Positions 34,173-62,362 of a stretch of DNA of 64,000 nt are shown here, piece by piece (position 1 is the stretch's first letter; every line of letters starts with the position of its first letter). The stretch is from Eledone cirrhosa (Eukaryota). A program made the position numbers and the translations under genes. The notes beneath the pieces are model-generated. The model saw only the letters and a list, made by a program, of their open reading frames with translations. It was not told where the DNA came from and ran no database searches. Location: the NCBI GenBank assembly GCA_964016885.1, contig OZ024742.1, positions 213,590,001 through 213,654,000 of the forward strand. Reading direction: 5' to 3'.

Positions 34173-34375
34173 CCTCCCCTGAAATGCATAGACGGTTGTC
34201 CCCCTTGCTTCTGCTGGACATCACCAGAGCATCACCAGAGGGCGTTAGCTCCCCGGTGTTTGCATAGCTACGGCTTCCTAAAACCGTATTTCTTTGGAGA
34301 TACGAAATATTTATACAAATTGTATAAAGCTATGCTTGAAGCGAAATCCTATTTTTTTTATATATATATATATAT

Positions 34376-34642
34376 GTAGGAGGTGAGTTTTATTGTAGCA
34401 CAATAAAGCAATGCAAATATCGGATAAGTAGCACTCTACAGTTTGTAGGACTGGAGTATAAATAATATAAGATCAAAAGATGGTTAAAACTTCACTATTC
34501 ACAAGTGTGTTTAAGCTTCATATCATGTATCCCTATGTTATCTGATGAAAACGCAGATATCATCCCACGATGATATTTGTTTTTGAAATGTGCATAATAA
34601 AATACTTGGAACTCTTTTAACTATCTTTTGATCTTATATTAT
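34376..34642. mobile_element. PLE family A pseudo-LTR split into two head-to-head pieces
   Basis: 34376-34489 = reverse complement of ~4788-4900; 34490-34642 = ~4660-4813. Confidence 0.88.
34534..34604 (+). ncRNA. Type I hammerhead ribozyme (family A)
   Basis: TATGTTAT-CTGATGA..GAAA-TGTGCA-TA^-ATAAAATA. Confidence 0.78.
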
Positions 34643-34689
34643 ATATATATATATATATATATATATACATATATATATATATATAACTT

Positions 34690-35765
34690 TGATAACTTTC
34701 ATAGGCTTCGGCCAGTGTTGGCCCAGGTCATGTCTAAGTTAATAGCACCACCTGGCGAAGTCTTTCAAATCAGGATTTGGACACCATGGCCCACCAGTAG
34801 GGAGTTATTGTTTATGGATCATATCCGGGTGTAGGAAGTTTATACGGAATTTCTTGAAGGATTTTGTTCAAAGACATCTTGAACTTTATGGGGTTTGTTT
34901 CTGTTTTGATGTGTTTTGGTGTAATGTTAAAGAGATCAGGGCCAATTGAGGTGAAATAATTGTGCCGTATTGTTGTTATAAGGTGCGAATTTGACAGCAG
35001 GGGGGGGGGGGGGCAAGAATAGGGCGTACTTTAAAGGTGATGCCAACATCATTTGGGCAATGCTGATGGAATAATTTCCACATCACGCAGTTAATGTAGC
35101 GCTCACGGTGGCGTTGGGGAGAATAAAGTTTGAGTTTTTCTAGTCGACCCCAATAGTCAAGGCCTCACATGCCAACTATCTTTTTCGTGATTGACATTTG
35201 AGGAGCTTCAATTTTCATGATACTTTCTTTCGTGTGGGGAGACCACAGGCGACAACAGTATTCAAGGTGGGGTCGGGCAAAAGTGGAGAAGGATAATAGT
35301 GTAGATATCTCTCGACTGGAAGGTTCTGAGAATCCAGGAACACATTCTACGGGCCATGTCAACTTTGCTGTTTATATGAGTGGCCCAGCTTATGTTGTTG
35401 TCCACAATTACTCCCAAGTTTCTGATGTTGTTGGATGATGCCACGAGAGTTTCACCTGTAGGAAGGGAGTATGGGAGTTTCAGGGCATCCTCTTTTCCAA
35501 AGTGGATTAACTCAAATTTATCCTCATTCAACAGCATATTGTTCTTTTCTGCCCATTGTATAACAACGAGTAGATCGGATTGGAGGCATATCCGGTCACC
35601 CACGCCATTGATGTCTTTTTGGAGCTTGGAATCATCTGCGAAGATTCTTATGCTTCTGTGCTTGATGATGTTGGTAATGTCATTAATATAGATAATGAAA
35701 AGAAGAGGGCCAAACACAGTGCCTTGTGGGACACCACTACTGACTTTGGCTATCTTATTAATTTG
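34690..35765 (-). mobile_element. CR1/Jockey-group LINE 3' fragment (RT)
   Basis: SSGVPQGTVFGPLLFIIYINDI..IFADDSKL..LNEDKF..LGVIVD..RPHLEYC..WSP. Confidence 0.88.
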
Positions 35766-35987
35766 TGTTTGAGACAAGTTGGCTGAGTGCTTTTGACGGG
35801 AGCGGAAATTATTGTTTTCTAATCTCCTTCCACCAAATAAATTTGTAAATCGGTGGCCGATCGGGATACAGAATTGTATCAGATTCCAGTTGCTAATCAC
35901 TTTACTGTGTCGGCCGTCACAAACAGTCATAGCCGGCATGGACTGGAGTTGAATTATGTCGATCGATTGGTTGTTGATTAGGCGATA

Positions 35988-36098
35988 CCCGCTGATAAAG
36001 CTACATGCGCCGATTATGCATTGTTGCATAATATATGCAGACAGAGGGTGCAGTGCACCCTACTGCTGCATTAAGTGTGGCCGAAACTCGAGTGCGGG
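35988..36098 (+). ncRNA. Degenerate hammerhead ribozyme
   Basis: CCCG-CTGATAA-AGCTACAT...GTGTGGCC-GAAA-CTCGAG-TG-CGGG; core and cleavage triplet mutated. Confidence 0.55.
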
Positions 36099-36495
36099 AA
36101 CTACTATAGGCACCCGTTTACGTGTGTTGTATTGAAGCTAATAACTATGTGTATATTCTGGGAATGTATTCTACATTACCTATTGAGTACGCTGAGATAC
36201 AACCGGTCCTGGCATTGATAAATATGCTGGGCCTGTCAACTCTTTATCATTATATATAGATACATATATATATATATATATATATATATATATATATATA
36301 TATATATATATATATATATATATATATATATATATATATATATGTATATATATATGAAGCACTATAGATATGAAGCACTATATATATATATATATATATA
36401 TATATATAATATATATATATATATATATAGTGCTTCATATATGTTATGAACATAATTCTGTTGATTGCTTATCAACAAAGTCTATAACTCATTGT

Positions 36496-37256
36496 ATATA
36501 TATATATAAAACAGAGGATGTCTGTGTGTATAAAACCCTAAAACTCGAGAAGTACCCGACCGATTTTTTTCACTTTTTCTGCCCTAGGCATTTGTGCATG
36601 TTTAGGCGTTTTTGAGGCGTAACTTAAAGATAATCCAGTCGATTTCATCAAAGTTTGCAGCACACATTAGTTAGTCCCCTCGCATTGCTGTGGACAAAAC
36701 AATTTTCCGATTCCATTAATGGTTTCTAGGAAATTTACGAATTAGCATTGGGCATTACATGCCATTTTATTTTCAATATAAACGCTACTTAAACATCATA
36801 AGTAGCGTATAATATTTCGTTAAAAATTTGGTTTATTTAACATTTGTGCTAATTGCACTATGACCCCCTTCTGCTGCGACTGCGTTGCCACGTTGATTTC
36901 GTCATCTCAATATCCCTACTTAAACGTATATCCTTAGTTGGTTTTCACACAATTGACTACGTCGCTCCTTCAGACTGACGTGTGTTCCCCATCTGTGACG
37001 TAATTCGCGAACAGAATTACGACATACATCGTCACACAACACTTACTCCTTTCGCAAACAGGATTTCCGCAATCAGCCCACTGACACTGTTACTACTGGA
37101 TTCGGCCTTCTGGTGTTCTACGTTTCCAGTAAATGAACAATCATTCCCCGAGAATAAGGGAATTCAAAAAGTACACAACTACATTCCTCAATATTTGCAT
37201 ATGCGTGTTGCTATTTCACGTTTCCTACCCCGTGCAACGCCGGGTCCTGTTGCTAG
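36496..37256 (+). mobile_element. Non-autonomous Helitron
   Basis: 5' TATATATAAAA..GTCTGTGTG like the 17812 element; 3' CCCG-TGCAACGC-CGGG hairpin then CTAG|T. Confidence 0.72.
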
Positions 37257-59870: not shown

Positions 59871-60669
59871 GTCTCTTTATATATGTAATACATATATTTC
59901 CCCTTCCTTGAATCCTCCACGCATTACACGAGACACAAAGCAGAGAAATTGATATACCCACACCTATACACCCACAATTGAACACCCCCATATAAACAGC
60001 TACAGACAAACACCCACATTGATACCCATACATATTGGTTATCGGAGTACACATAGGTCTAGCAGGTTAATTAAATCACACACAGAGACACACACATATA
60101 CACACACACATGCACACACACACACACGCACACATACTGAGGCACACACACACTCACGCACACACATACACGCATATATATATATATATATATATATATA
60201 TATATATATATATAAAACGATAAATCAGTGATGCAACTGAACTCAATTTATTGTGTGACACAATAAATTGAGTTCAGATGCATCACTGATTTTTTGTTTT
60301 ATATTATATCACAGTCTGCTCTGTAAGAACATAGAGTGCTCAACTGGCATACCACCTATGGAAGTATCATAGCTACCATCAGACACACACACACACACAC
60401 ACACACACACACACACACACACACACACACACACACACACACACACACACACACACACACACACACACACATATATATATATATATATATATATATTTAT
60501 ATATATATAGTTTCGTTGACAAATACTTTTTTATGACATTGTATGACATTATATGCGTCAATGTATTGTGTCTTATTCTATATAGCACTGGCCTCGGGCC
60601 TCCCCTGCTGGTCCTTAAACCTTGTTCTGGTGACGCAGCTTGATGGAGCATGCAACTATTGATATACTC

Positions 60670-60735
60670 TTGTTTATAGGCTCTGATGATTCCTGCCTTA
60701 TGGTACGGATGAAACACTGTTAGCTAATAAAACAA
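60670..60735 (+). ncRNA. Type I hammerhead ribozyme
   Basis: TTGTTTATAGGCT-CTGATGA-TTCCTGCC ttat GGTACGGAT-GAAA-CACTG-TT^-AGCTAATAAAACAA. Confidence 0.7.
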
Positions 60736-60851
60736 TGTATTTCTAAGCACTCTTTGGTTATTCCTAAACCTATATATATATATATATATATATGTATATA
60801 CGGGAATTGAAGATTCAAGTACCTTAGCGGTATGTCGCATATCCAATCTCT

Positions 60852-60922
60852 TATATATTTTATCTGATGAAAACGTACTGAAACACCACTGTACCTTTGA
60901 AATATGTATAATAAAATATATA
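60852..60922 (+). ncRNA. Type I hammerhead ribozyme (family C relative), 12-bp stem I
   Basis: TATATATTTTAT-CTGATGA..GAAA-TATGTA-TA^-ATAAAATATATA. Confidence 0.8.
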
Positions 60923-61430
60923 CTTTGGTTATGATATTTCTCATTTATTAATATTTTGAATAATAATATAGAGATAGGTGTGTGTGTGTGTGTGTGTGTG
61001 TGTGTGTGTGTGTGTGTGTGTGTGTGTGTGTGGGGGGGGGGGGGGGTGTGTGTGTGTGTGTGTGTGTGTGTGTGTGTGTGATTTTTAGTGTGATATGGTC
61101 CGTACCGTAGATAGAACTCAATATATATATGTGTGCATCCCGTGTTCAATCGGGGGTTAACCACAGTAAGGTACTCAATACATAGCAGAGTATAAATATT
61201 TAATATTTCCTGATGATTTCCTTCGAATGAAGCAGTTCTATATTATATATATATATATATATATATATAGTAATAATAATAAATTTCAAGACTAAAATCC
61301 AAAGAGGGCTGGATAAGGATAAATTAAATATATATCAAATATATAAGAACCCTAGATCAAATATTTATTAAAATAACAGTTGCAACGTTTTGTGAAATAT
61401 CCACATCTGCGTTTACAGATTGACTTTGTT

Positions 61431-61481
61431 AGTTTCAGAAGATCCCGTTCAGGGTGAAAGCAGCGATTCTTTGCTTAAACT
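61431..61481 (+). ncRNA. Hammerhead ribozyme with one core substitution, monomer-type stem III
   Basis: AGTTT-CAGAAGA-TCCC gttca GGGT-GAAA-GCA..TGC-TT^-AAACT. Confidence 0.6.
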
Positions 61482-61789
61482 TTAATCTGTTATTTTAATA
61501 TATATATATATATATCCAATACTTTTCCACCACATAATCACATACACGTACCCTTGTATCTTAAAATGTCCAGCCACACCTCTCAAACACACAATATATG
61601 TGTGTGTGTGTGTGTGTGTGTGTGTTTATGTGTGTGTTTATGTGTGTCATTGAATGATTAATTACCGGACAATGTGATCGACATTATTGTGCATTGATCA
61701 GAATTATTCACACACACACATGCATATATATATATATATATATATATATATATATATATATATATATATATATATATATATATATATAT

Positions 61790-62362
61790 ATGAATGTATA
61801 TATAGTGTTTATTGCAATACACTGTATGCTTAATTAAAAGCATTTCGAAGACCTTATGTTATTGTTTTAGAGTAGTGACAGTCTCACTTACTTTAATTTT
61901 CAGCAAACAGGGGAGATAAAGCCGACAGAGCCCTGTTTCGCATTTGTTGATACTTATCAAAGCTAACTACTCCTCCTGTTTACCGAAAATCATGAATGTT
62001 TGATTCTTATAGAATTCTAGTAAATAATCAAGAACTGATTATACAGAGGCGTTGCCGGTCAAGCAGAAATTGATAATTAGAATTGGTGCTCTGAAATAGG
62101 TATATATATATATGAATGTATATATAATGTATTTTGCAATACTCTGTATGCTTAATTAAAAGCATTTCGACAATACGAAACAGGGCTCTGTCGGCTTTAT
62201 CTCCCCTGTTTGCTGAAAATTAAAGTAAGTGAGACTATCACTACTCTAAAACAATAGCATAAGGTCTTCGAAATGCTTTTAATTAAGTATACAGTGTATT
62301 GCAAAATACACTATATATACATTCATATATATATAGCTATTTCAGAGCACCAATTCTAATTT
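61790..62362. mobile_element. Nested inverted copies of an HHR-bearing element (degenerate HHR 61920-61964, -)
   Basis: 61790-61940 mirrors 62176-62326; AGCT-TTGATAA-GTAT..ATGC-GAAA-CAGggctCTG-TC^-GGCT. Confidence 0.7.

Follow-up and report, generated by a model that had tools for sequence, protein, structure and literature searches.

Head-to-head Penelope-like insertions in Eledone cirrhosa as a likely record of RNA 5' ends and ribozyme cleavage

INTRODUCTION

The closest described relatives of the elements treated here are the Hydra-clade, endonuclease-bearing (EN+) Penelope-like elements (PLEs). As described in PMC8557442, they join a reverse transcriptase (RT) to a C-terminal GIY-YIG-type endonuclease, have a DKT motif and a CxCX5C linker and lack a CCHH motif. 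They insert into (TA)n targets, carry a 3' ribozyme and an inverted, 5'-truncated copy, and may end in a tail. The same features recur in elements that we analysed in a 64,000-nucleotide stretch of the Eledone cirrhosa genome (assembly GCA_964016885.1, contig OZ024742.1, positions 213,590,001 to 213,654,000, forward strand), called the window below. The clade is mostly cnidarian in that description, which does not map where the two inverted copies, or arms, begin.

The 2014 paper that found hammerhead ribozymes in Penelope elements cites an absence of in vivo evidence for them (PMC4209133), and a 2024 study reports that ribozyme cleavage is unnecessary under its in vitro conditions (PMC11167929). 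Where do the arms of genomic copies begin, and on which RNA?

A sequence-only reading of the window held that arm starts cluster at the ribozyme. Starts next to the predicted cleavage site would be RNA 5' ends made by the ribozyme; starts in stem II or at GAAA would come from RT stalling or fold-back on uncleaved ribozyme. The DNA would thus record ribozyme activity in vivo. Here we report the distribution of arm starts in the window and in further parts of the genome. Judging from sequence comparison, we put at roughly 70% the probability that arm starts are the physical 5' ends of RNA templates: mostly the transcription start of the pseudo long terminal repeat (pLTR) and, in ~1-2% of the pairs of one family (A), the predicted ribozyme cut.

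MATERIALS AND METHODS

The contiguous genome surveyed comprises 1.464 Mb including the window; loci chosen with queries downstream of the ribozyme were added, and after removal of duplicates the sample held 141 sequences (1.89 Mb). The genome around the window (3.0 Gb) is rich in microsatellites. Long natural copies, refined by majority vote, served as references to which arms were aligned. Coordinates are relative to the predicted cut, 0 being the first base 3' of it. Ribozymes were identified by hand from long copies. Thirty loci were left out of the family A counts because their query favoured stem II starts; some of them re-entered through a tail-only query. Families D and E34, diverged and cross-matching, were excluded, and families Y44, Z24, P and U lie outside the counted set. 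Also excluded were arms that meet a contig edge, the limit of the reference, a subfamily break or the end that N and Q share (A 13/137, G 7/56, I 2/54, B 3/41, M 8/69, N 34/69, W 4/22, Q 53/76, X23 7/32).

Walls, that is, steps in the density of starts, were sought blind in nine families with a step statistic and permutation P-values under a uniform and a length-decay null. The relaxed motif YYAKT is of our own choice, derived from the TCAKTY given in PMC4581360. Cut-site loci of family A were scored on the first 58 of 576 matches in genome order. Fifty A wall palindromes, the G wall loci, the joins at GAAA and the near-cut loci of families I, G and B were counted by eye.

RESULTS

Arm starts pile up at walls specific to each family

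Self-comparison of the window reveals many head-to-head inverted pairs that end in (TA)n. The arms are the 3' ends of PLEs and of retrozyme-like tandem units. Their starts are not uniform. In family A, 106 of 108 fall inside the ribozyme, where a uniform null expects 32.7; strong enrichment is confined to this family. Elsewhere the counts (expected numbers in brackets) are 17/44 (12.1) in G, 17/42 (10.6) in I, 5/33 (6.0) in B, 13/45 (5.5) in M, 8/35 (3.2) in N, 6/18 (2.1) in W, 3/23 (1.8) in Q and 5/19 (2.0) in X23. Clustering at the ribozyme is thus overwhelming in A and weak or absent in the rest, and the main pile-up is not a ribozyme feature.

That pile-up takes the form of a wall. In A it stands at -45, with 64 of 124 starts within 10 nt and 6 in the preceding 30 nt; in G it stands at -115 (19/49 starts, none before) and in B at about -124/-125 (15/38, one before). 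All three reach the permutation floor (P = 0.002) under both nulls. Walls also appear in M at -39 (12/61 starts, 5 before; P = 0.006 under the uniform and 0.038 under the length-decay null) and in I at -102 (8/52, 2 before; P = 0.014 and 0.068). An apparent wall in N at -164 was discarded because homology to the reference ends there. Measured from the catalytic core, the A wall lies 41 nt inside, in stem II, and the others lie upstream by 35 (G), 70 (B), 5 (M) and 23 nt (I); because these offsets differ by family, the walls obey no ribozyme landmark. Genome-wide, an 18-mer just downstream of the A wall matches 54,952 times versus 3,975 times for one just upstream, with patterns that may differ in subfamily coverage. 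Two wall-class A arms meet in 16,290 palindromes; of the 50 listed, not one extends past -46. For G, 33 of 34 loci with wall pairs end at or after -116.

What the walls have in common is a motif. Those of A, G and M sit exactly on the A of YYAKT, which occurs at 0.7-1.0% of background positions; the B wall is 1 nt off TC-A-TAT and the I wall 2 nt off TC-A-TTC. Scored against TCAKTY at 0-2 nt from the blind walls, A and I reach 6/6, B and M 5/6 and G 4/6. Downstream, G has AGACGTGT at +28, an 8/8 match to the downstream promoter element (DPE) RGACGTGY given for Penelope in PMC2377424 (background 0.05% including its own site). B matches the same element at 6/8 (0.8%, own site included), and A has a 9/12 match resembling the motif ten element (MTE) at +18 (0.3%, own site included). 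At strict spacing the downstream elements are a DPE (6/6) and a Bridge (8/9) in G, 5/6 in B and the MTE-like 9/12 in A, with none in M or I. On these motifs the walls are quite probably the start of pLTR transcription, and promoter starts would explain the bulk of the arms. Two other candidates were rejected: a splice acceptor at the A wall, ruled out by arms that contain bases 5' of the AG, and movement of whole palindromes as miniature inverted-repeat transposable elements, ruled out by a different junction at each locus.

The walls might still be RNA 5' ends produced when a nuclease processes a structure, namely the loop of stem II in A and, in G and I, an extended stem I at its foot. The A wall does coincide with the position of the stem II loop, predicted folds would pair the G wall with bases 3' of the cut, and a cap-derived G is lacking (2/14 arms). 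Yet processing requires a different structure in each family, and it does not predict that A, G and M match an initiator to the exact base or that G has a DPE at +28. We consider it unlikely.

A small class of family A arms starts at the predicted cut

In the unbiased sample, with 11 families pooled, starts at 0..+5 are 1.6-fold over the flanks (17 versus 62 in 35 flanking bases). In family A, 576 loci match genome-wide a pattern in which both arms start near the cut. In 17 of the 58 scored, both arms start exactly at the cut and are separated by 1-6 untemplated, A/T-rich filler bases; another 7 are joined bluntly (at 0, or at -1 with two bases of overlap). The 28 filler-bearing loci have 51 arm ends within -7..+3; 38 of these fall at 0, one of 11 eligible positions (P = 4e-29). 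Scaled up, the class amounts to ~240 loci, or ~1.5% of the A wall class, as an order of magnitude only (pattern stringencies differ).

A variant typical of long copies with a whole ribozyme is found in 15/24 of the cut class, 8/12 long copies and 12/49 of the wall class (cut versus wall, P = 0.002), as expected if the cut class needs a complete ribozyme. The small class makes cleavage by the predicted ribozyme in vivo very probable. To this extent the idea that cut-site starts are ribozyme-made RNA 5' ends, and that the DNA records ribozyme activity, is supported, on the strength of the genome-wide spike at the exact predicted cut in A. The window's own examples, at 54960 and 60257, are weak, and other families show no clear spike.

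Could the spike be a stop of the RT, on uncleaved RNA, at the run of four G or at the foot of stem III? The cut lies by definition at that foot, there is no other such G run to serve as a control, and the Anolis element shows no RNA-seq ends at the cut in the data reported (PMC11167929). Against a stop, the ends fall at 0 (38/51) and not at -1 or -2, where pairing begins, and both arms share the same base. The foot of stem II has no such spike, and it is the whole-ribozyme copies, not the wall copies, that the class matches. An RT stop is thus improbable as the source of the spike.

Stem III is real in A, at 5 bp, and minimal and palindromic in the families without a clear spike (I, G and B), though numbers are small; the minimal palindromic type is reported as a poor cleaver (PMC4209133). 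Family G is uninformative as an inactive-ribozyme control (10 loci, symmetric context).

Starts at stem II and GAAA

RT stalling or cDNA fold-back on uncleaved ribozyme had been proposed as the origin of the stem II starts. Three observations speak for it: 98 of 108 A starts lie in stem II or GAAA, one J locus (L214/L215) has an in-register switch across a 25-bp stem I, and the stem III palindrome is the centre of about 11 of 50 near-cut joins in B. The A peak, however, is at the top of stem II, its loop end, and not at its base, and in none of the 45 listed A pairs does the junction retain a folded-back loop. In G, B, M and I the corresponding peaks fall outside the ribozyme, upstream of the core on initiator-like motifs. 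Thirteen of 98 pairs have non-overlapping arms, and fold-back therefore cannot account for them. Nor is there a filler-type spike at GAAA among 50 listed A loci. Stalling or fold-back is very unlikely to have set these starts.

Both starts lie near the base of stem II or GAAA at 1,022 A loci genome-wide, and 15 of 50 such loci listed are one 6-bp microhomology join between the 3' strand of stem II and stem III. Among B joins, in addition to those centred on the stem III palindrome, ~15/50 centre on the T-run before GAAA. The ribozyme moulds some junctions through its own symmetry, not through stalling.

Highly improbable, finally, is that the walls are the DNA boundaries of a few short master copies, inherited as breakpoints: wall arms and long copies do differ in variant spectrum (12/49 against 8/12, P = 0.013), and short copies therefore probably have source lineages of their own, but junctions vary by locus with no shared flank, the walls of five families fall on the same type of motif, and short sources with an internal promoter already belong to the explanation by promoter starts.

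How the pairs would form

Arms of a given family stop 3' at either of two fixed points, which in A lie 20 and 98 nt past the predicted cut (+20 and +98), and 94 of 98 inverted pairs combine one long-end with one short-end arm. Partner arms share private variants, in A at 4.4% of 1,814 sites versus 0.95% when shuffled; sharing of non-consensus bases exceeds the shuffled level in A, B and G. Most arms span the cut (117/133 in A), as with the uncleaved templates reported in vitro (PMC11167929).

The pair structure is consistent with both target strands having served as primers, at two internal sites; the step that makes the arms overlap we infer. The endonuclease would nick both strands of a (TA)n site, and each nicked end would prime RT at one of the two internal sites on the same or a sister RNA. 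Arms would come to overlap through strand displacement or a second RNA. Both cDNAs would run off the 5' end of the RNA, often gaining untemplated bases, and their ends would be trimmed by a few bases and joined, often via microhomology, some of which the ribozyme's self-complementary stems would supply. Because the probable A start lies inside stem II, an RNA begun there would lack the 5' half of the ribozyme; the cleaved A templates would derive from longer transcripts that hold it whole.

The elements and their ribozymes

Family A has open reading frames (ORFs) of 689-710 aa in two loci (L379 and L380), with YRDD and a C-terminal IYQ...YIG region. Compared with the description in PMC8557442, the translations have DKT, RWR in place of RWK, a CxCX5C linker, no CCHH, and CxxC and CxH near the end. 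Among Atlas look-alikes of this ORF, there are clusters in which up to 50% of members carry GIY-YIG and 92% carry RVT_1; Pfam and PDB searches with it gave no match. (TA)n targeting, the inverted truncated copy and the tail are all present. The motifs mark family A as a putative Hydra-clade PLE, with a single ORF for RT plus a GIY-YIG-type endonuclease at its C terminus. A Neptune label was dropped after comparison with the same description.

Rfam gave no match at the gathering threshold and no hammerhead among 150 matches listed at E<=1. The A ribozyme has the core UUGAGAA (a U3:A8 variant, in 9/15 copies), a GUC triplet, and stems I, II and III of 5, 8 and 5 bp. With its core boxes, 3:8 pair, G10.1-C11.1, three stems and NUH triplet all in place, it is a predicted type I hammerhead. 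Family G departs at the invariant core A6: 15 of the 29 copies spanning the core read CCGTCGAA, and a minority retain A6. Core variants recur across families: A and J have U3:A8, G and I have C4, and M has A4. Standard descriptors would miss them.

Three loci (L090, L094 and L003) hold family A pieces of 17-18 nt (+2/+3 to +20) with (TA)n on either side. Family A also provides at least 16,290 loci with near-perfect hairpins of 40-60 bp; their transcription, if it occurs, would supply much double-stranded RNA to editing or silencing.

Families H, J and K consist of non-coding tandem units of 323, 320 and ~460 nt, each unit containing one type I hammerhead. At least one crossing of the cut is present in 49/60 arms of H, 38/55 of J and 35/61 of K. 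Starts are spread round the unit in J (P = 0.52) and H (P = 0.24), and the window starts at 34181 and 62172 are therefore not part of a peak. In J, five single-unit starts at +1..+8 with none at -25..0 give a hint, no more. A phase cluster in K (P = 0.004) is not trusted, as it lies beside an internal (TA) run. The window also holds, at 58780-59896, a ~540-nt tandem duplication of the family K unit with internal inverted arms.

Arms in the window

Self-comparison and alignment confirm as true arm starts all nine coordinates listed in the sequence-only reading. Its list is selective: it leaves out partner arms and arms of the window's families B, D, M and N, whose starts lie 5' of the core or 3' of the cut. 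The partners left out include arms at 34178 (-45), 61781-62170 (+75 of the preceding unit) and 58707 (+16). Starts in stem II or GAAA do exist at 53063 and 56320 (both -40, 3' strand of stem II), 34181 (GAAA) and 62172 (stem II; the aligner stretched this arm to 62160), with the omitted arms elsewhere. Starts near the predicted cut, 54960 at -2 and 60257/60258 at +1/+2, also exist, and both are ambiguous. The 54960 arm holds two bases 5' of the cut, and a start at the wall combined with a deletion between TCGG repeats is an equally good reading of it. The 60257 start is compatible with the cut; its context is palindromic and AC-repeat, and the G core is mostly mutated at A6.

Table 1. Arms and arm pairs in the window (window positions; starts and ends relative to the predicted cut)
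Feature	Positions	Strand	Details
H pair (323-nt tandem retrozyme-like unit)	34114..34368	.	minus arm starts at -45, whole small ribozyme; plus arm 34181 at GAAA (-10 to -13)
J pair (320-nt tandem retrozyme-like unit)	61781..62363	.	minus arm >1 unit; plus arm 62172, stem II loop/3' strand
A long arm with 78-nt tail	52852..52989	-	start -40, end +98 in (TA)n
A short arm, wall-class	53063..53122	+	start -40 (aligner extends to -44), end +20
A variant short arm	54896..54955	-	start equivalent to -41
A variant long arm	54960..55061	+	start -2; first base after predicted cut is 54962; TCGG microhomology junction, ambiguous
A perfect palindrome	56182..56377	.	both arms start at -40, centre 56319/56320; between a long interspersed element (LINE) fragment and a short interspersed element (SINE)
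A non-overlapping pair	58626..58761	.	tail-only long arm (-, +16) adjoins short arm (+, 58715, -27); twin-priming geometry
G pair	39419..39634	.	starts ~-21/-19 (39492), microhomology; far downstream of G wall (-115)
G pair	60204..60383	.	starts +1/+2; 0/0 plus one filler base if source is the shorter AC variant
I solo long arm	37353..37562	+	between (TA)n runs; start -54 inside long stem II
B pair, absent from the sequence-only reading	34379..34647	.	short arm starts at -114, upstream of intact minimal ribozyme (core 34542)
B short arm	13361..13536	+	start exactly on B wall (-124), 69 nt upstream of core

A filler of ~70 nt separates the A arms 52852..52989 and 53063..53122. This filler (52990-53062) resembles the reversed AC-rich repeat at 54003-54475 and may have been copied from DNA close by when the ends were joined. 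Three long B copies, at 3520-4897, 6533-8552 and 9565-10939, are in inverted arrangement, with a degraded GIY-YIG-type ORF and a similar motif layout. Other LINE-type fragments lie at 21427-27062, 35262-36059, 38778-39214, 48044-49680 and 55324-56147, several of them split by Penelope arms at (TA)n. Head-to-head palindromes of further families occupy 12001-12287, 47018-47358, 57668-58257 and 63880-63980; the one centred at 12144 begins ~10 nt before a CTGAAGA core. Motifs 5' of the ribozyme in N, Q and W (46582-46958) resemble what we take to be NRF1 sites (GCGCATGCGC), and N and Q also have AAGATGGCG-like motifs, presumably YY1-like sites, upstream of the ribozyme.

DISCUSSION

If arm starts are template ends, a cut spike in hundreds of germline insertions means that cleavage occurs, that it is minor (~1-2% in A) and that 5'-cleaved fragments serve as templates. 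The walls would let promoters be read, and the twin-priming model be tested, from DNA alone in any element-rich genome. A stronger statement, on which we are evenly divided, is that double-armed insertions amount to a germline library of the kind made by rapid amplification of 5' cDNA ends (5' RACE), which would prove cleavage in vivo to the nucleotide and map the promoter of each family. In A, transcription would start inside the element's own ribozyme: promoter RNA would escape cleavage, read-through RNA would be cut, and its 3' fragment would still retropose.

Several observations weigh against reading arm starts as template ends. The ends of the RNA are deduced from the ends of genomic DNA. 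Four of the nine families (N, W, Q and X23) have no significant wall; A, M and I have no DPE at +28; there is no cap signature, a G preceding +1 in 2/14 arms; and the initiator and DPE consensuses were defined in Drosophila and may not be those of the host. In G and I the wall is also close to where an extended stem I, if it forms, would have its 5' base. At the cut, pooled enrichment over 0..+5 has P = 0.063 and the spike is demonstrated for A only: an arm starts at 0 in 2/11 near-cut loci of I and 3/10 of G (one arm each, none clearly both), and ~4/50 near-cut loci of B are at 0. The cut's position at the foot of stem III, before the run of four G, would allow an RT stop there. As for the pairs, partner arms in family I share variants without excess (0.8% versus 0.5%), and shared variants could stem from later conversion between arms.

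How does this locus compare with known systems? A literature search, with most subscription papers outside its scope, found none in which the starts of Penelope arms are mapped to promoters or to cuts by a hammerhead. In the twin priming of L1, an inverted segment results from a second priming by the other target end. Here the second priming site is fixed, overlap between arms is usual, and pairs are the norm.

There are ~14 short double-armed insertions here for each long copy, and the tail is ~78 nt as against the 30-40 given for Hydra-clade elements in PMC8557442. The Anolis Poseidon element PAc, as characterized in vitro, is alike in having two internal RT start sites that define the tail, in cleavage of both strands and in the use of uncleaved RNA as the main template; unlike its reported RNA-seq ends, none of which lies at the cut, genomic copies of family A do start there (PMC11167929). 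Penelope of D. virilis likewise has a TATA-less pLTR start with an initiator and the DPE RGACGTGY, which G matches at +28. That start was mapped experimentally, according to PMC2377424, whereas ours is read from DNA ends and in A lies inside the ribozyme. Families H, J and K resemble the non-long-terminal-repeat retrozymes described in bioRxiv 10.64898/2026.07.22.740005 as non-coding tandem units with one type I hammerhead each, and differ in inserting as head-to-head arm pairs. The nearest parallel at the cut is R2 with its ribozyme resembling that of hepatitis delta virus, whose genomic 5' junctions are likewise described as reflecting the cleavage site, with variable joins at chance microhomologies (PMC3774820). 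Cleavage gives the complete R2 element its 5' end; in family A it would free a 3' fragment of 20-98 nt and open a minor route to insertion.

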